Positions 16,197 through 41,270 of a stretch of 64,000 nucleotides of DNA are shown here, piece by piece (position 1 is the first letter of the stretch; every line of letters begins with the position of its first letter). The stretch is from assembly GCA_041665025.1 (NCBI GenBank), contig JBAYJP010000001.1:211996-275995 (forward strand), written 5' to 3'. Source of the stretch: Candidatus Magasanikiibacteriota bacterium (lineage in GTDB: Bacteria; Patescibacteriota; Patescibacteriia; Magasanikbacterales; UBA922). Under the pieces are notes generated by a model. The model did no database searches and had not been told where the DNA came from. It worked only from the letters and a program-made list of their open reading frames with translations. The position numbers were made by a program, and so were the translations under genes.

Positions 16197-16256
16197 AAAC
16201 TACGAAACCCTATTTTGAATTTTACCGCTTGCCAGGCGTAACGAAGTGAGGACTAG

Positions 16257-16327
16257 CAGGCGCTGTAGGAATCGAACCTACACTAACGGTTTTGGAGACC
16301 GTAGTACTACCATTATACGAAGCGCCC
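16257..16327 (-). tRNA. tRNA-Trp (anticodon CCA), no encoded CCA tail
   Basis: Manual cloverleaf: acceptor GGGCGCU/AGCGCCU, D-arm GUAU/GUAC, anticodon stem ACGGU/ACCGU with loop CUCCAAA, T-arm GUAGG-UUCGAUU-CCUAC, discriminator G. Confidence 0.9.
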
Positions 16328-16425
16328 ATGCTTTGAAAGCCAAAAAAGTATACTAAATAATTAACTAAAAATCAAGTAATATATCTTACCTCATTTTTAT
16401 CAAAGATAATAGCGTAATAACGTAT

Positions 16426-17244
16426 TTACACTGATTTAGGCGGTACTTTTTGGATAACATCTGTATCCTTTTTCCAAAAAACTGCAGTAATCATTACCCC
16501 AAGAAGCAAAACAGTAAACAAATATCGAATTTGTACATCAAAAGCTGATAATACTGCCACAATAATACTTGGCCCTGTGAGTGCAAAAAGCCCTAAGGTA
16601 TATATACTCCCAAATTTCCATTCATCCCATTTCCCAAAATAAGCAACTAATAATACAATTACAGATACTACCAACAAATAAACTAATTTTCCAATACCAA
16701 GAATAAAGAACCACGCCACCAAAGCCAGAACAAAAATTCCAGTCTTGTTCATGAGTGTTCCATCTATCCAGGAAATGACACTCTGCTTACCTATTTCAAA
16801 ATTCGGCATTTCAGAAAAATACTGAACTTTTGTCTGATGTTGTTCTCTGTCATAAAACTCCAGCCTATTTGAAGCAAACAACACGCCATCTTGAGTAGAT
16901 GTATCAATGTATGCGTCAATCGGCTCAGTGGTGGATGAAACAGTATCTACGATTATTTTGACAGATTTTTCCTCGGACTCAAATATGTATGGCTGTTCTA
17001 GTTGTGTTACATTGGCTACTCCATCTTTTACTTGTACATGAAATGCGGGGATATTGTTTACAATTTCATTGCGTACGTCAGATACTCGACGTGGTATGAT
17101 TATGGCAGAATAAATCGCGTAGCCTACAGACAAAAGTAAAATAAACAAGATGACATAATTGGCAGCCTGGCGGCCGTTGTTGCGCTGTGCACGCAACCAT
17201 GAAAAGTCATAGAGACTTTTTAGAAACGCTTTGAGGTAAAACAT
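16426..17244 (-). CDS. hypothetical membrane protein (possibly DUF1189-like)
   Basis: N-terminal TM, a soluble middle region and C-terminal TM helices; no catalytic motif recognised. Confidence 0.35.
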   Translation of the reverse strand: MFYLKAFLKSLYDFSWLRAQRNNGRQAANYVILFILLLSVGYAIYSAIIIPRRVSDVRNEIVNNIPAFHVQVKDGVANVTQLEQPYIFESEEKSVKIIVDTVSSTTEPIDAYIDTSTQDGVLFASNRLEFYDREQHQTKVQYFSEMPNFEIGKQSVISWIDGTLMNKTGIFVLALVAWFFILGIGKLVYLLVVSVIVLLVAYFGKWDEWKFGSIYTLGLFALTGPSIIVAVLSAFDVQIRYLFTVLLLGVMITAVFWKKDTDVIQKVPPKSV

Positions 17245-17262
17245 ATATTACACGTAAAAAAT

Positions 17263-17286
17263 AAAACGGTCAGAACTGACCGTTTT
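17263..17286 (-). terminator. bidirectional intrinsic terminator downstream of rpmG
   Basis: aaaacggtcag-aa-ctgaccgtttt. Confidence 0.5.
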
Positions 17287-17294
17287 AGTATATC

Positions 17295-17465
17295 TTACTT
17301 CGTTTCCTTGTGCAATGTATGTTTCTTACAGTATTTGCAGTACTTTTCAAGCTCAAGCCTATCTTTGATAGTTTTCTTATTTTTGCGAGAAAAATAATTG
17401 ATGTGCTTGCACACGGTACATTCAAGCTTAATCATGTTTTTTCGCTCTTCTGATTTTGAGGCCAT
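17295..17465 (-). CDS. rpmG: 50S ribosomal protein L33
   Basis: Not in the ORF track (56 aa). Translation [56 protein letters not shown] shows the L33 C4 zinc-ribbon pattern. Confidence 0.85.
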
Positions 17466-17556
17466 ATCATTAAGTTAATATAGAAAGTTTACCCGTCTAT
17501 TTATAGAATAGGGTGACGTAATAATACACAAAAGACATCGAAATGTCAATACCCAG

Positions 17557-17629
17557 AGCCGTTGCGCGGAATTGAACCGCGGACCACCTCCTTACCATGG
17601 AGGTGCTCTACCAACTGAGCTACAACGGC
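17557..17629 (-). tRNA. tRNA-Thr (anticodon GGU)
   Basis: Cloverleaf GCCGUUG-UA-GCUC-AGUUGGUA-GAGC-A-CCUCC-AUGGUAA-GGAGG-UGGUC-CGCGG-UUCAAUU-CCGCG-CAACGGC-U. Confidence 0.9.
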
Positions 17630-17747
17630 CTAAATTCCTGTGCGTGCCAAGATGACGCGACCATTGCAGCAGATAATCAGCCGCGTAAAGTCGCTGACGA
17701 TCCTACGCGTCACTCAAAGACGCTTCGTGTAGTCGCGTCTTTTCGCG

Positions 17748-17821
17748 TGCACGCCAAGGGATTCGAACCCCTGACCCTCTCGGTGTAAACGAGATGCTCT
17801 AACCAACTGAGCTAGGCGTGC
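17748..17821 (-). tRNA. tRNA-Val (anticodon UAC)
   Basis: Cloverleaf GCACGCC-UA-GCUC-AGUUGGUUA-GAGC-A-UCUCG-UUUACAC-CGAGA-GGGUC-AGGGG-UUCGAAU-CCCUU-GGCGUGC-A. Confidence 0.9.
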
Positions 17822-17825
17822 GTAG

Positions 17826-17907
17826 TGGGCAGAGAAGGATTCGAACCTTCGAAGGCGGAGCCAACAGATTTACAGTCTGTCCCCTTTGACCGCTCGGGAA
17901 TCTGCCC
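17826..17907 (-). tRNA. tRNA-Tyr (anticodon GUA), long variable arm
   Basis: Acceptor GGGCAGA/UCUGCCC, anticodon stem ACAGA/UCUGU with loop CUGUAAA, 13-nt variable arm, T-arm GAAGG-UUCGAAU-CCUUC. Only 4 nt separate it from tRNA-Val. Confidence 0.9.
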
Positions 17908-18005
17908 GTGATAGTTTGTAAAGTTAAAAGTTATAAAGTAAAAAGTTACTAGAGTAAAAAACTAAAACTTTATAACTTGGAACTTTACAACTTTTAACTT
18001 TGGAG

Positions 18006-18078
18006 AGCCGAGAACAGGATTCGAACCCGCGACCCGCTGTTTACAAAACAGCTGCTCTACCAGCTGAGCTATCTCGGC
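18006..18078 (-). tRNA. tRNA-Thr (anticodon UGU)
   Basis: Cloverleaf GCCGAGA-UA-GCUC-AGCUGGUA-GAGC-A-GCUGU-UUUGUAA-ACAGC-GGGUC-GCGGG-UUCGAAU-CCUGU-UCUCGGC-U. The downstream bases are CUCCA, so CCA is not directly encoded. Confidence 0.9.
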
Positions 18079-21428: not shown

Positions 21429-22772
21429 TTAATTAAACTTCTCATTTAAATAATCTCTCAACTCGCTCATTTCAATTCTCTCCTGCACCATCGTATCTCT
21501 ATCCCTCACCGTAACTTTTTTATCTTCAAGAGAATCAAAATCAACCGTCACACAATATGGCGTACCGATCTCGTCTTGTCTACGATAACGTTTGCCAATA
21601 CTTTGTGTTTCATCATAATCAACCATAAAATCTTTTCTCAAATCATTTGCAATCTGGCGTGCAACTGATGAAAGTTCTTCTTTTTTGGATAATGGCAATA
21701 TGGCAACTTGAACAGGTGCCAAGTGCTTGGGGAATTTCATCACCACACGTGCTTCAGTTTCTCCTTCTTTTGCAGTTGGAGCTTCCTCTTCAGTATACGC
21801 TTCAAGCAATGAGACAAGTAACATACGATCAATACCAAAAGTTGGCTCGATCACATGAGGCAAAAACTTCTCATTTGTTTCAGGGTCTTGGTACGTCAAA
21901 TCTTGTCCGCTCACTTCCTGATGGCGCGTTAAATCAAAATCAGTACGATACGCGATACCATGCAATTCTTTCACGCCAAATGGATATTTGTATTCAATAT
22001 CAACGGTCCGCTTACTATAATGTGCGCGTTCACCATCGGGAATTTCATGCCAAACTAAATTATCCATGTTGATCTGCATAATATCTTTCCACCAGCGTTT
22101 GATTTCATCCAGCCACATCTCAAAAGTTTTTTCCCAATTTTCCGGTTTGATAAAATATTCAAACTCGCCTATTTCAAATTCACGCGTGCGAAAAATAAAA
22201 TTACCTGGCGTAATTTCATTGCGAAAACATTTGCCAATCTGGGCAATACCAAACGGCAATCTGCGTCTCGTAACATTTAAAATATTTTTAAAATTGACAA
22301 ACATACCACCCGCGGTTTCTGGACGCAAATATGCAGTCGTCGATGTATCTTCATTTGTTCCAATAAATGTCTTGAACATGAGGTTAAAATTTTTGGGTTC
22401 AGTAAATGTACCTCCGCAATCAGGACATGTTAATTTTGAAACATCTTGTCCTTCAGTATAGTCTGGAAGCTGGTCAAATCTAAATCGATGGTGACATTTC
22501 TTGCACTCAACCAACTGATCAGTAAAATTCTGCAAATGACCCGACGCTTCCCATGCCTTGGGATTCATAATAATAGCGCTGTCGAGTGGAACCATATCTT
22601 CACGTTCTTGTACAAAAAATTTCCACCACGCTTTTTTGATGTTTTGTTTTAGGGCATGACCAAGAGGACCATAGTCCCAGCTATTGGCTAATCCGCCATA
22701 GATTTCACTACCAGGGAATATAAAACCCCTGCGCTTTGCGAGTGAGGTTACTTTATCTAGTAAGTTTTCCAT
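21429..22772 (-). CDS. glyQS: glycine--tRNA ligase (alpha2 dimeric type)
   Basis: Full-length 447 aa class II aaRS with the GlyRS anticodon-binding domain; typical N-terminus MENLLDKVTSLAKRRGFIFPGSEIYGG. Confidence 0.9.
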   Translation of the reverse strand: MENLLDKVTSLAKRRGFIFPGSEIYGGLANSWDYGPLGHALKQNIKKAWWKFFVQEREDMVPLDSAIIMNPKAWEASGHLQNFTDQLVECKKCHHRFRFDQLPDYTEGQDVSKLTCPDCGGTFTEPKNFNLMFKTFIGTNEDTSTTAYLRPETAGGMFVNFKNILNVTRRRLPFGIAQIGKCFRNEITPGNFIFRTREFEIGEFEYFIKPENWEKTFEMWLDEIKRWWKDIMQINMDNLVWHEIPDGERAHYSKRTVDIEYKYPFGVKELHGIAYRTDFDLTRHQEVSGQDLTYQDPETNEKFLPHVIEPTFGIDRMLLVSLLEAYTEEEAPTAKEGETEARVVMKFPKHLAPVQVAILPLSKKEELSSVARQIANDLRKDFMVDYDETQSIGKRYRRQDEIGTPYCVTVDFDSLEDKKVTVRDRDTMVQERIEMSELRDYLNEKFN

Positions 22773-22998
22773 ATGTGGTATGAATTATAACAGAGTTTTT
22801 TGAATAAAAAAAGACCGCAAAAACGGTCTTGGGTCGCGTGGTCAGGTGACTTTACGCGAGGTTCCACCCAAGTTCCCTGGTTTACCCAGGACTCTTTATG
22901 TAGCAAACTCGCTTTGTGCGTGTTAGTCAGCGTAAGTCTGCGTTTTTGCCACCTCCACGGTTGCCTAGACCGCTTCATTGGTGGTAGTATTAGAGTAT
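22773..22998 (-). promoter_or_regulatory. T-box riboswitch leader (glycine specifier) controlling glyQS
   Basis: Minus-strand RNA contains a Stem-III hairpin CCUGGGUAAACCAGG. It is followed by the T-box box AACUUGGGUGGAACCUCGCG. The antiterminator is CUUGGG[UGGAACC]UCGCGU...ACGCGACCCAAG, with a 7-nt bulge that ends UGGA to pair tRNA-Gly UCCA. A competing terminator AAGACCG-UUUUUG-CGGUCUU plus U7 sits at 22804-22828. Upstream is a loop CUAGGCAA with the GGC glycine codon followed by A. Confidence 0.6.
22804..22828 (-). terminator. T-box expression-platform terminator
   Basis: agaccg-uuuuug-cggucu followed by uuuuuuu, 30 nt upstream of the glyQS start. Confidence 0.6.
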
Positions 22999-23038
22999 CT
23001 CTTTTTTAGAAATAAGTCAACTAAATAAACAAAACTGT

Positions 23039-27758: not shown

Positions 27759-28898
27759 TTAATCCATCAAAATCTCCAACGTCTCTCTCGCACACTTCTC
27801 CCACGAAAAATCTTTCACTCTTTCTAATCCTCTATTCACATTCTGCATTCTGCATTCTGCATTCTGCATTGCTTCACTAACTCCACGCGCAATATCCTCA
27901 ACACTCATCGGATCCACATACACGCATGCATCTCCCCCAACCTCTTCGAGGCTGTTTCCTTTTGACGCGACCACGGGTGTACCACAGGCCATGGACTCAA
28001 GCACGGGAAGTCCAAAACCTTCATACAAACTAGGAAAAACAAAAACTTCCGCCGCATTCAAAAGGTATGGCAAATCTTGTTCATCTACCCAACCTGGAGT
28101 GACAATGTCATGTTTAAAAACACTATTACTCAGAGTGTGTCTCACCTCTCCATAGCCATATCCTGGTTTACCAACAAGCAACAATTTCAGATTTTCAGTT
28201 TCTGATCCTAAAGTAGTTTTTAATTTATTAAATGCCTGGATGATTCGTGTGGTATTTTTCTTTTCTTCAAGTCTACCAACACTCATAATAAATGGCTTTT
28301 GAATTGAATATTTTTTCAATACCTTTTCAATACCTTTTTCATCTTCAATCTTTTTATATTTCTCATCATACCCATGTTGTACCACAAAAACCTTATCATT
28401 ATTCTGAATTCTCAAATCTGCATTCTGCAATTCTTCTTTTACAAATTTCGAGGGCACAATCACTTTCCACGCTCGTTTTAACGCATACCGCGCCGACCAA
28501 ACAGAATACCACCGCTCAAACCAATTGTACGACTCTGGAAATTTTATTGCGGCAGTATCGTGTATCACGGCTACTGTTTTTTTTGGATGAATCAACGGCA
28601 TGACATGCGCAGGAATAAACAATACATCTGGAGGATTTCTAAACATTTCCCAACTTAATCTGATTTGCGTCCACAATCTCTTTGGCCACCATGCGAGTAC
28701 TTTTTGTGTCCAATTCTCTGGTAACTCCACCAACTCTCCTTGTAAAGGTTTATCCGTATACAATACAAATTCAATTTCCTCCGTGGTCCCTATTCCCTGT
28801 TCCCTATTGTACATTTCTGTAATCACACGAAAGGCGTATTCTTCCACACCTGTTCGTTGCTCACCGTTTGCCCGTGACGCATCAATACCGATGATCAT
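27759..28898 (-). CDS. GT4-family glycosyltransferase
   Basis: C-terminal EGFGLPVLESMACGTPVVAS (the E-x7-E region). Contains an ATTCTGC x4 tandem heptamer near its 3' end. Confidence 0.8.
   Translation of the reverse strand: MIIGIDASRANGEQRTGVEEYAFRVITEMYNREQGIGTTEEIEFVLYTDKPLQGELVELPENWTQKVLAWWPKRLWTQIRLSWEMFRNPPDVLFIPAHVMPLIHPKKTVAVIHDTAAIKFPESYNWFERWYSVWSARYALKRAWKVIVPSKFVKEELQNADLRIQNNDKVFVVQHGYDEKYKKIEDEKGIEKVLKKYSIQKPFIMSVGRLEEKKNTTRIIQAFNKLKTTLGSETENLKLLLVGKPGYGYGEVRHTLSNSVFKHDIVTPGWVDEQDLPYLLNAAEVFVFPSLYEGFGLPVLESMACGTPVVASKGNSLEEVGGDACVYVDPMSVEDIARGVSEAMQNAECRMQNVNRGLERVKDFSWEKCARETLEILMD
27840..27867. repeat. tandem heptamer (ATTCTGC) x4 inside the GT4 coding sequence
   Basis: Direct reading; encodes AECRMQNAECRMQN in the C-terminal tail. 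Confidence 0.8.
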
Positions 28899-29854
28899 AT
28901 TATTTCTGTTTTTTTCAATCTTGTTATGCTAAAGATAGCAATAAACATAATAATGGCGCCAACCCACTGTGCTAAGGTCAAAACTTTGTCATGGATAAAC
29001 CATTCCAAAATAATCGCACTGACCGGAAATACTAATTCATACATTGTCGATTGAGTAGCCGTAACTTTTTTTAATCCGTAATAATATATAAATATCGCCG
29101 TAGCTCCAGTTGTCAGAGCAATTAAAATAAATAAACCAATAAGTTTCAAATCCAACAACCCAAATCCGCTAAACCCAAGATAATTTGTTTCAACGCCCGC
29201 TTTCTTTAGCACTGCAATAACGCCAAGAACCACAATCATCACCGCCGTTGTCATAACATAACGAAGCAATGTTCCAACCCCATGACTCACATTGCTAACT
29301 GCGCGTTTTGAAAAGACAGTAGAAGAACCAAATGAAAATGCAGCAAGCACAGCTAGTAGCGCAGGTACGAGCATCCCTTGAGCGCTTAGATCAGGACGTG
29401 CAAAACCAAATGTCAGGAAATAACTTCCTATAAGCGCCACAAGAGCCCAGATGTAAAACTTTTTGTCTGGACGTTCTTTGAGAAATACAAGCGCAAGAAC
29501 AATAGCAAAAAGTGGCTGTAATTTTTGCAATAATAATACCACTGAAATATTTAATCCATTGCCATAGACCATCAAAATAGCTGCAACAATCGCCATAGTG
29601 CCGAGTGCCCCGCCAAACAAACCAACAAGTGCAAACGATACCCAATCCATTTTCTTTAATAAACTAATTTCTTGTTTTCGAGTAAAATAAAAATAGGAGA
29701 GAAAAACGAGACCTACCGCGTGCAACATAAAAACGATTGTCGGCACGTCATACAATCCCCACTTCATTATTTGCGGCGTAAAAACTACGCCGTCAAATGC
29801 CCACAAAAATGCGGCACACATGATGGACAGCGCACCAAGATACGATTTTTTCAT
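28895..29854 (-). CDS. EamA/DMT-superfamily transporter
   Basis: 10 TM helices in two EamA-like halves. Start set at MKKSYLGAL (29854), which has SD AAAGGAA 6 nt upstream; the ORF-track extension to 29887 is rejected. Confidence 0.6.
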   Translation of the reverse strand: MKKSYLGALSIMCAAFLWAFDGVVFTPQIMKWGLYDVPTIVFMLHAVGLVFLSYFYFTRKQEISLLKKMDWVSFALVGLFGGALGTMAIVAAILMVYGNGLNISVVLLLQKLQPLFAIVLALVFLKERPDKKFYIWALVALIGSYFLTFGFARPDLSAQGMLVPALLAVLAAFSFGSSTVFSKRAVSNVSHGVGTLLRYVMTTAVMIVVLGVIAVLKKAGVETNYLGFSGFGLLDLKLIGLFILIALTTGATAIFIYYYGLKKVTATQSTMYELVFPVSAIILEWFIHDKVLTLAQWVGAIIMFIAIFSITRLKKTEII

Positions 29855-30110
29855 ACGGTTCCTTTCACCCCGCCACGGCGAGGTCAATTAAGTCCCGACT
29901 AAACCACGTAGAACGTGGCGAACGGTCGGCCCACGAATCACACGTGGTCATGCTCTGTTCTTTACGAAGAACTCGGCTCGACGGCTTTACCCTAAACCAC
30001 AAGGGATTTAGGGTTTACGTCCGGTTGGCGAATATTCCACCTCAAACAAAATTACGGGCTTGTCCGCCGTAGCCTTGGCGGAGGTGGACGCCACCCTGGA
30101 ATGAATTAGA
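29855..30110 (-). promoter_or_regulatory. GC-rich, highly structured 5' leader (about 255 nt) of the DMT transporter gene; candidate riboswitch or cis-regulatory RNA of unknown class
   Basis: A series of perfect local hairpins on the minus strand: CCCUAAA..UUUAGGG, CCACGUAGAACGUGG, CCACGAAUCACACGUGG, GUUCUUCGUAAAGAAC, GGUGGACGCCACC and CCGCC..GGCGG. The leader ends directly at the SD of the transporter. Confidence 0.3.
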
Positions 30111-40615: not shown

Positions 40616-40830
40616 ATGCTAAGTTTTCTAAGTTAACTAAGTTGTCTAAGTCTTCTACGTTTAATAGCGCAGTAAAAACTCAAACAAAAAACTGTGGTTG
40701 TTCCACAGACCTTTATGTTATCCTTCGACCTTTTTGGCTGAATTTAGCTAAAGTATGATACTTAGCAAACCTAGTCAAATTAGAATAACCTCGGCAGGTA
40801 ATTAAGTCTTTCGACACCTGCTGTCTATGG
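40616..40830 (-). promoter_or_regulatory. rplJ (L10) leader with internal attenuator hairpin
   Basis: On the minus strand: CUGUGG-AACAA-CCACAG followed by UUUUUU (plus-strand 40683-40708), about 70 nt upstream of the rplJ start. CTAAGTT tandem words lie just before the start. Confidence 0.4.
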
Positions 40831-40881
40831 TAATAAACACAGATTACACTATGGCAAAAATTTTGTCAAGTGTAATCGAGC

Positions 40882-41045: not shown

Positions 41046-41066
41046 TTTTGTAGCGCCACGGGGAAT
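41046..41066. repeat. 21-bp direct repeat copy (within the 3' end of tRNA-Glu)
   Basis: Identical to 40882-40902. Confidence 0.8.
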
Positions 41067-41120
41067 CGAACCCCGATTCTCAGGATGAAAACCTGATGTC
41101 CTAACCATTAGACGATGGCG
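41049..41120 (-). tRNA. tRNA-Glu (anticodon UUC)
   Basis: Cloverleaf GGCGCCA-UC-GUCU-AAUGGUUA-GGAC-A-UCAGG-UUUUCAU-CCUGA-GAAU-CGGGG-UUCGAUU-CCCCG-UGGCGCU-A. Confidence 0.9.
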
Positions 41121-41270
41121 CCATGTAGAGGAATGTGCCAAAGTATACACTACTTTTTAGCAAGTCGTCAAGAGACAAAAACCATTATTCAATTAACAAC
41201 ACACAGGGATTGTGCTATAGTGATTACGTAAGAACTCACACATAAGCCTTAACTACTCTAACTAGACTAT

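Follow-up and report, generated by a model that had tools for sequence, protein, structure and literature searches.

The window (the whole stretch of DNA that was analysed, 64,000 nucleotides) contained a glycine--tRNA ligase (GlyRS) gene on the minus strand that was directly preceded by a T-box leader (Table 1). In addition to NF003211, the GlyRS ORF matched TIGR00389 (glyS_dimeric) at 508 bits. A first-pass annotation of the region 22773-22998 had placed a glycine T-box leader with a terminator and an antiterminator 5' of a gene designated glyQS. The gene was found to code for GlyRS, as judged by NF003211, but it is a single-chain glyS of the dimeric type and not a two-subunit glyQ/glyS pair. 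All leader elements listed in that annotation were present on the minus strand. The Stem III hairpin was recovered, the T-box sequence and the antiterminator with its 7-nt bulge were located, folded and found to be conserved, and the GGC-A specifier candidate was assigned to the terminal loop of Stem I, with an invariant GGC. The overlapping terminator was also present as a hairpin with a U-run; however, the overlap comprises just three nucleotides (AAG) and not the whole 3' strand, and the spacing to the start codon, given as 30 nt, is approximately 33 nt. The genome had further been described as CPR-like, and the closest GlyRS relatives agreed with this: the best 80 of 517 relatives in reference genomes were nearly all from Candidatus Magasanikbacteria or other Patescibacteria MAGs, with no more than 88% identity. 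The window itself is part of a 283-kb contig (ena:ERZ27249449:k141_705746, 282,756 bp).

Table 1. Features of the glyS locus and its T-box leader, in window coordinates and in the order of transcription.
Feature	Position	Strand	Remarks
P1 -35 box TTGACT	23015-23020	-	Putative
P1 -10 box TACTCT	22992-22997	-	Putative, weak; 3/6 to TATAAT
T-box leader	22806-22987	-	5' of glyS
Ultrashort Stem I	22949-22984	-	About 36 nt, K-turn-based; from Rfam alignment, fold and covariation in relatives
Stem I C-stem CCACC/GGUGG	22980-22984 with 22949-22953	-	
Stem I K-turn AAU-GAA / GGA	22974-22979 and 22954-22956	-	Assigned at the sequence level
Stem I upper helix GCGGU/ACCGU	22969-22973 with 22957-22961	-	
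Stem I terminal loop CUAGGCA	22962-22968	-	7 nt
Specifier GGC, followed by A	GGC 22965-22963, A 22962	-	Inside the Stem I terminal loop
Linker hairpin GCAGACUUACGCU...AGCGAGUUUGC	22903-22941	-	Lineage-specific insertion; fold prediction
Stem III 5' purine flank AAGAG	22892-22896	-	RRRxG motif
Stem III UCCUGG-GUAAA-CCAGGG	22875-22891	-	3' AA flank at 22873-22874
Antiterminator/discriminator core	22828-22872	-	A1, bulge and A2
Helix A1 CUUGGG/CCCAAG	22867-22872 with 22828-22833	-	
Bulge UGGAACC	22860-22866	-	7 nt; UGGN end adjoins A1
Helix A2 UCGCG/CGCGA	22855-22859 with 22834-22838	-	16-nt loop
T-box sequence UUGGGUGGAACCUCGCG	reverse complement of 22846-22862		Within A1 5' strand, bulge and A2 5' strand (22855-22872)
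Intrinsic terminator AAGACCG-UUUUUG-CGGUCUU and U-run	stem-loop 22811-22830; with U-run 22806-22830	-	Terminator scan
P2 candidate, extended -10-like box TGTTATAAT	22784-22792	-	16 nt past the U-run, 11 nt before ATG
glyS, dimeric-type glycine--tRNA ligase	21429-22772	-	447 aa; NF003211, 632.8 bits (cut-off 312)

In the window, Stem I and Stem III are connected by a 57-nt linker that holds one additional hairpin. The terminator stem has 7 bp, and CGGUC is followed by seven U's, two of which lie within the stem. The trinucleotide AAG at 22828-22830 forms both the first three nucleotides of the terminator and the last three of the A1 3' strand. The U-run is separated from the glyS ATG (22772) by approximately 33 nt that are unpaired and A/U-rich, and no Shine-Dalgarno sequence was found upstream of glyS. 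The truncation of Stem I, which carries the specifier in its terminal loop, is a point that the first-pass annotation had not contained.

When the window was searched with Rfam at the gathering threshold, no T-box was reported. At a permissive threshold, the whole RF00230 model matched positions 22827-22987 of the minus strand (E = 5.3e-7 in a 601-nt search and 5.6e-5 over the whole window), so that the covariance-model match proposed as a check does exist but stays below gathering (38.4 bits vs 93). The K-turn, Stem III, the T-box sequence and the antiterminator fitted the model well. The score is low because distal Stem I is nearly absent, only 4 nt standing for 71 model positions. Among nine relatives searched with RF00230, only two matched at E <= 0.1 (30.5 and 28.4 bits). 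Folding of the leader gave z-scores of -3.2 and -3.5, and when the terminator was left out the minimum free energy (MFE) structure and the centroid were identical (z = -3.5), consisting of Stem I, the linker hairpin, Stem III and the bulged antiterminator. The proposed fold check thus succeeded for the antiterminator with its 7-nt bulge, and the terminator alternative was computed as well. Neither the Rfam search nor a filters-off scan with the family model described below detected another T-box within the window, such as one at pheST.

We then analyzed the loci of the 80 best GlyRS relatives (designated by L numbers). The sequence GGGTGGAACC was found upstream of glyS in 16 of them, and the remaining 64 had no T-box element. 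A family covariance model that combined the single sequence of L058, at 122 nt the most compact member, with a structure written by hand recovered exactly these 16 loci and the window, with E values from 1e-36 to 2e-5, and had no match elsewhere in the 600 kb searched. In all 16 relatives, the T-box was located directly 5' of glyS on the same strand. A metagenome scan with the pattern GGGTGGNACCN{8,38}CCCRAGRCC was also carried out, and the family model matched none of the 80 metagenome loci listed by it.

MAFFT alignments of the leaders (A1 and A2, not to be confused with the helices) set the hairpins out of register and were discarded. Sixteen leaders, the window among them, were instead segmented by hand, and this segmentation was checked by concatenation against the real sequences. 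An Infernal alignment (A4) served only as a conservative independent check, because it misassigns Stem I for two sequences (the window and L001) and Stem III for two others (L007 and L009). In the Infernal alignment, 97.3% of cells were paired, compared with 79.3 ± 1.2% after shuffling and at most 52% with slid partners; compensatory (both-side) changes occurred in 19 of 28 pairs, and none of 500 shuffles reached any of these measures. In the hand-curated alignment, 98.9% were paired (84.9 ± 1.0% after shuffling), and double changes were seen in 17 of 28 pairs, a value reached by none of 2000 shuffles. These counts come from alignments that are both fitted to, or lean towards, the structure; despite this bias, several different compensating helices were seen for every one of four elements (Stem I, Stem III, A2, terminator). 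Covariation was present at all four basal pairs of Stem III and in A2, and the six basal terminator pairs that were counted were canonical in all 16 leaders.

The GGC in the Stem I terminal loop and the UGGAACC bulge were invariant in 17 copies (the window and 16 relatives), and so were the GGG/CCC of A1 and the presence of the terminator with its U-run. Other parts of the leader varied considerably. The Stem I loops were 5-8 nt long (CUAGGCA, UUGGCG, UUGGCU, UCGGCA, GUGGCA, CGGCU, UGGCA and others), and across the segmented leaders both the loop bases that flank GGC and the stem of Stem I differed. The K-turn was present in 14 of 16 leaders and missing from L039 and L041. Stem III was flanked by AAAGUG, AAAGAG or AAAGCG on the 5' side and by AA (AG in two members) on the 3' side. 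A linker hairpin occurred only in the window, L007 and L009, and the three hairpins were unrelated to one another; in 13 of the 16 relatives, including the closest one, L001, the linker was merely 14-27 nt long and single-stranded. Stem III was long in L001, L061 and L064, and the A2 loop in L001 and L041. In compact members, Stem I through A1 spanned only about 105-120 nt. This pattern indicates that the T-box discriminator features are under strong purifying selection.

In a rough neighbor-joining tree of GlyRS, the T-box-positive loci fell into at least six clusters, all of which were within the Magasanikbacteria clade, and none of the outgroups at 62-68% identity was T-box-positive. The frr gene was located upstream on the same strand in loci with and without the T-box, and in T-box-negative loci glyS mostly abutted the frr stop codon directly. 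As far as such a rough tree can be read, this distribution fits an old T-box cassette between frr and glyS that was lost repeatedly. The absence of the element from most related loci, together with an Rfam score that is far below gathering in the window and lower still, or missing, in most relatives, might also suggest that the resemblance arose by chance or that the T-box is a degenerate one that has lost its function. However, conservation over at least six GlyRS clades, abundant compensatory changes and invariant functional motifs effectively refute this explanation, and we consider it to have almost no chance of being correct.

With regard to specificity, the variable position N of the bulge was A in the window and in all 16 relatives, from which U73 is predicted for the cognate tRNA-Gly. 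In bacteria, the discriminator base of tRNA-Gly is U73; for the present genome, both U73 and a GCC anticodon are assumed from what is general in bacteria. The GGC in the loop and the A opposite the discriminator base are, at the level of sequence, two independent signals for tRNA-Gly. A search for a tRNA-Gly gene in the window, the 80 loci and the 10 kb that flank each end of the window gave no match.

We compared the leader with T-boxes described previously. Like the Bacillus-type glyQS/glyS transcriptional T-boxes (B. subtilis and G. kaustophilus; PDB 6POM and 6PMO, cited in PMC7583486), it belongs to a GlyRS gene and has a GGC specifier, UGGAACC between A1 and A2, a basal K-turn in Stem I, a Stem III enclosed by RRRxG and AA (a motif defined in PMC11404447 and PMC7583486) and an intrinsic terminator; in addition, most family members share with them the absence of a Stem II domain or Stem IIA/B pseudoknot. 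On the other hand, several features differ. In the Bacillus-type leaders the specifier is part of an internal Specifier Loop in a long Stem I, whereas here it occupies a terminal loop of 5-8 nt, beyond which no sequence is found in any member, and the AG bulge/distal loop platform (interdigitated T-loops) for the tRNA elbow is absent. The purine that follows the specifier, a conserved feature of the class, is A in the window, but across the 16 leaders this base is A in six, G in four and U in six. The A2 pair next to the bulge, a G·U in the Bacillus type, is U-A in the window and variable in the family (U-A in eight leaders, C-G in three, G-C in two and A·C in three); a G·U wobble at this position has been described as the primary steric sensor of the aminoacyl group (PMC7583486). 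The Bacillus-type terminator uses the 3' strands of A1 and A2, and here only 3 nt of A1 are shared. Finally, the family scores 28-38 bits with Rfam or is not matched at all (gathering score 93), and its host belongs to the CPR. The discriminator core thus places the leader in the T-box superfamily, although it lacks several features that define the class.

Intermediate and ultrashort Stem I elements are known from T-boxes that act on translation and are found mostly in actinobacteria; the Stem II domain "becomes essential" in these leaders (PMC7583486). Ultrashort examples are the leaders of actinobacterial ileS genes (Mycobacterium and Nocardia; Sherwood et al. 2015, cited in PMC7583486; "class II" in TBDB). 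As these are portrayed in secondary sources, they resemble the present family in a truncated Stem I without the elbow platform and in a common core of Stem III, A1, UGGNACC and A2. According to the same sources, they also have a Shine-Dalgarno sequestrator, a Stem II S-turn with a Stem IIA/B pseudoknot and specificity for Ile, unlike the family described here, which has a terminator with a U-run, no Shine-Dalgarno sequence, specificity for Gly and mostly a short linker at the site of Stem II. Only simple, unrelated hairpins occupied this site in the window, L007 and L009. The variant is best read as a combination of an ultrashort Stem I of the actinobacterial style with a terminator of the Bacillus style.

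The glycyl T-boxes of pathogens offer another comparison. In glyS leaders of S. pneumoniae, S. pyogenes and S. aureus, function is kept despite variation in the K-turn, the length of the linker, the presence of Stem II, the base pair of A2 and insertions in the antiterminator (PMC11404447, PMC9177973), and the sites of variation (linker, distal Stem III and A2 loop) match those in our family. These leaders, however, retain a long Stem I with the AG bulge and apical loop, and none has been reported with a specifier in a terminal loop. Glycyl T-boxes normally have no Stem II, which has been attributed to the strong GGC/GCC duplex (PMC11404447), and such a duplex offers a rationale for a glycine T-box that is reduced this far. 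In TBDB, use of the truncated-Stem-I model was restricted to Actinobacteria and to sequences hit by the Rfam model (PMC7778990); since the present family is beyond the reach of the latter, it falls outside this coverage. Full-text literature searches retrieved no paper that joins T-boxes with CPR, Patescibacteria or Parcubacteria, and no description of a terminator-type T-box with a truncated Stem I.

The ultrashort Stem I, so far described for translational T-boxes (PMC7583486, PMC7778990), raises the question of whether the leader is instead a translational T-box similar to those of actinobacterial ileS, in which tRNA would control the access of ribosomes to the start region. Several observations are against this. 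A canonical G+C-containing stem with a U-run follows A1 in all leaders, and the segment of approximately 33 nt before the ATG is A/U-rich and unpaired. There is no Shine-Dalgarno sequence to sequester, similar motifs being rare throughout the window (2 of its 57 long ORFs are preceded by one), and in the folds nothing in the leader was complementary to the start region. We therefore regard translational control as very improbable.

The overlap between terminator and antiterminator is informative in this respect. In three members (L001, L007 and L009), the third pair of A1 changes from U-A to C-G, and the first pair of the terminator changes accordingly from A-U to G·U. The nucleotide shared by A1 and the terminator thus covaries and yet satisfies both helices, which points to its dual use and would be expected only if switching matters. 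The two alternative states, one with full A1 and a 4-bp terminator stub and the other with the full terminator, A2 and a 3-bp A1, were isoenergetic in every member; the mean core energies were -19.3 (ON) and -19.6 kcal/mol (OFF), i.e., about 0.3 kcal/mol apart. The 3-nt overlap is thus thermodynamically almost neutral, and A2 and inner A1, which make up the tRNA 3'-end pocket, remain formed in either state.

When the terminator was forced in constrained folds of 16 members, the freed 5' CUY of A1 paired with the RAG of the Stem III flank, and the three members that have CUC carry G at the partner position of the flank. With this extension of Stem III, OFF was favored by 1-4 kcal/mol (3.2 kcal/mol on average and 1.1 kcal/mol in the window). 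The pairing of CUY with the flank RAG may stabilize OFF, but this is only a suggestion from the models because the purine-versus-pyrimidine composition of the two segments makes chance pairing likely. Stacking of the tRNA on A1 contributes approximately 0.9 kcal/mol and was called deterministic in a review (PMC7583486). In the models the preference for OFF is of a similar scale, and such stacking could tip the balance of a double strand exchange.

A candidate promoter, P1, was located upstream of the leader. In 15 of 16 leaders, it had at least 9 of 12 matches to TTGACA-17-TATAAT and ended 5-17 nt before Stem I. The window had the weakest version (TTGACT-17-TACTCT, 8/12), whose -10 box was not reported by a strict promoter scan of the window. 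The position of P1 would put the start of transcription at about the first base of Stem I. A second candidate, P2, was found downstream of the terminator. Of 16 leaders, 13 had a TATAAT-like box (at least 5/6) no more than 40 nt past the U-run (binomial 7e-6). In 11 of these 13, the distance between the box and the U-run end was precisely 16-17 nt, even though the sequence of the spacer was not conserved. The box was mostly preceded by TG and in most leaders was 7-13 nt upstream of the ATG; that of the window was the only perfect TGnTATAAT adjoining the start of a long ORF in the window. Similar -10 boxes were found at stand-alone glyS loci that have no T-box (L017, L023 and L055). Leaderless starts as a genome-wide habit were also considered but received no support: -10-like boxes near starts occurred at about the chance level (11 of 57 ORFs in the window).

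Given the conserved P2 box, transcription of glyS may be largely uncoupled from the T-box. In an extreme form, the T-box unit (from P1 to the terminator) and glyS would be separate transcription units, with glyS expressed from P2 and the T-box RNA being either a constitutively terminated sRNA, for example one that buffers or sequesters uncharged tRNA-Gly, or a decaying relic of regulation. The regular spacing of the TGnTATAAT-type boxes is consistent with such an arrangement, as are the nearly isoenergetic ON and OFF cores with OFF favored, the absence of the tRNA-elbow contacts thought to be necessary for co-transcriptional action, and a further 110-190 nt between the P2-type box and glyS in L008, L042 and L009. 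However, an independent RNA would not readily account for a T-box that always lies directly 5' of glyS in the same orientation and has no match at any other site in the 600 kb searched, for the dual-use nucleotide of A1 and the terminator that covaries to suit both helices, or for strong purifying selection on every T-box discriminator feature. Moreover, the boxes at the three T-box-free loci make P2 look like an ancestral basal promoter to which the T-box unit was added. Separate units are therefore unlikely in our view. P2 is more readily interpreted as a second, T-box-independent promoter that would provide a basal, near-leaderless glyS mRNA, on top of which T-box-gated readthrough from P1 would occur.

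With the structure, conservation and covariation, the two specificity signals and the sharing of three nucleotides observed here, the leader is probably a functional transcription attenuator of glyS that responds to tRNA-Gly(GCC), although tRNA binding and the control of readthrough are what we infer from these features. Several points speak against this interpretation: the GCC anticodon and U73 are assumed, the G·U wobble of A2 is replaced, the 3-nt overlap is almost neutral in energy, the P2 box is conserved, the P1 of the window is weak, and the covariation counts derive from alignments fitted to the structure. Moreover, most members have neither the elbow platform nor Stem II, so that their affinity and on-rate for tRNA may be too low without a helper. 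According to the proposed mechanism, transcription would start at P1 just 5' of Stem I, and GGC in the Stem I loop would pair with the GCC anticodon of tRNA-Gly. The UGGA of the bulge would pair with the 3' UCCA of uncharged tRNA-Gly, and, by homology with solved T-box discriminators, this duplex may stack on A1 and hold its outer three pairs (CUU/AAG). As long as A1 keeps AAG, the terminator would be reduced to a 4-bp stub located 3 nt from the U-run; termination would presumably be lost, and RNA polymerase could read into glyS. With charged tRNA or no tRNA, AAG would join CUU to complete the 7-bp terminator. The folds predict that the 5' CUU released in this way pairs with AAG in the flank of Stem III, so that the leader would be OFF by default. 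The inner GGG/CCC of A1, like A2, would be folded in ON and OFF alike.

A bolder reading is that this is the smallest natural T-box. It would act co-transcriptionally through two contacts only (the GGC/GCC loop-loop interaction and NCCA with the bulge), without an elbow platform, Stem II or the G·U sensor, by a double 3-nt exchange (flank RAG / CUY / A1 RAG / terminator CUU) in which the pocket for the tRNA 3' end stays folded throughout, and it would sit atop a constitutive promoter for a leaderless glyS mRNA. We consider this reading about as likely as not.

T-boxes are textbook examples of RNAs that sense which tRNA is present as well as whether it is charged. In current reviews, the long Stem I platform is regarded as necessary for terminator-type T-boxes to capture tRNA fast, and Stem II as compensating for a short Stem I. 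A terminator-type leader that has neither feature and is under clear selection therefore offers a natural minimal system for the requirements of co-transcriptional tRNA sensing, as well as a compact scaffold for engineered tRNA sensors. If true, the minimal reading would contradict the need of transcriptional T-boxes for the elbow contact and extend T-box regulation to the CPR. The family also shows that genomes of CPR/Patescibacteria, a group whose gene regulation has hardly been explored, contain a probable tRNA-sensing leader that escapes Rfam-based annotation. The T-box's patchy distribution, with the frr-glyS operon as the alternative arrangement, provides a natural experiment on the gain and loss of riboregulation in reduced genomes.

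As a minor observation on the gene models of this region, the public assembly calls a spurious 73-aa ORF over the T-box leader.

Between the T-box terminator and glyS, the gene for a dimeric-type glycine--tRNA ligase, lies an extended -10-like box, TGnTATAAT (Table), located 16–17 nt downstream of the terminator U-run and 7–13 nt from the glyS ATG. Among the related glyS loci, a box at the same position was also present in L001, L007–L009, L027, L030, L042, L057, L058 and L064. The -35 position of this box is occupied by the terminator U-run. Judged from sequence, the box suggests an internal promoter that would yield a near-leaderless glyS mRNA. Shine-Dalgarno (SD)-like motifs were detected upstream of only 2 of the 57 ORFs with a length of 120 aa or more in the whole window, and an SD motif almost never precedes glyS homologues in the 70-odd related loci. 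This appears to be a lineage without SD pairing in translation initiation.

In L008 and L042, the post-terminator TGGTATAAT box is separated from glyS by a structured element of ~110 nt (GUCCGGCAAAGUAGAGUGUCGU...GCCGGAGC; MFE approximately -48 to -50 kcal/mol). Several hairpin positions differ between the two copies, and an Rfam search of the L008 copy gave no match at E <= 0.1. L009 had a different spacer of ~150 nt at this place. Stem I, the ultrashort specifier hairpin, has no basal K-turn in L039 and L041; in L039, it is instead preceded by a short GAAA-tetraloop hairpin (UGUC-GAAA-GACA) on its 5' side. The hypothetical ORF called over the leader in the window is almost certainly spurious.

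Features of the window and of related loci
Feature	Position	Strand	Remarks
Extended -10-like box	22784-22792	-	sequence conserved across loci
73-aa hypothetical ORF	22757-22978	-	public assembly gene call; overlaps T-box leader
tRNA Thr(TGT)-Tyr(GTA)-Val(TAC)-Thr(GGT), then Trp(CCA)	16256-18078	-	cluster
EamA/DMT-family transporter ORF	28895-29887	-
FMN riboswitch match	29853-30052	-	sub-threshold: 27.5 bits vs gathering score 66.2; E = 0.032
Ribosomal protein L10 leader (RF00557)	40676-40848	-	62.6 bits, above gathering score 44
tRNA-Glu	41050-41122
pheS/pheT	~56.5-60 kb; L204:4325-7907
Structured element	L008:2830-2960; L042:2827-2960
5' hairpin	L039:2826-2838

Within this 64-kb stretch, T-box control was seen for glyS only; neither Rfam nor the family model (a covariance model built from the compact member L058) detected a T-box at the phenylalanyl-tRNA synthetase genes pheS/pheT. 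An EamA/DMT-family transporter ORF directly follows the FMN riboswitch match, which might represent a divergent riboswitch of this class that regulates a candidate riboflavin importer; the DMT family has been linked to RibN/ImpX. The L10 leader adjoins a tRNA-Glu gene. No tRNA-Gly was found in the whole window; in its tRNA cluster, Val takes the place that tRNA-Gly has in thrU-tyrU-glyT-thrT-tufB of E. coli.
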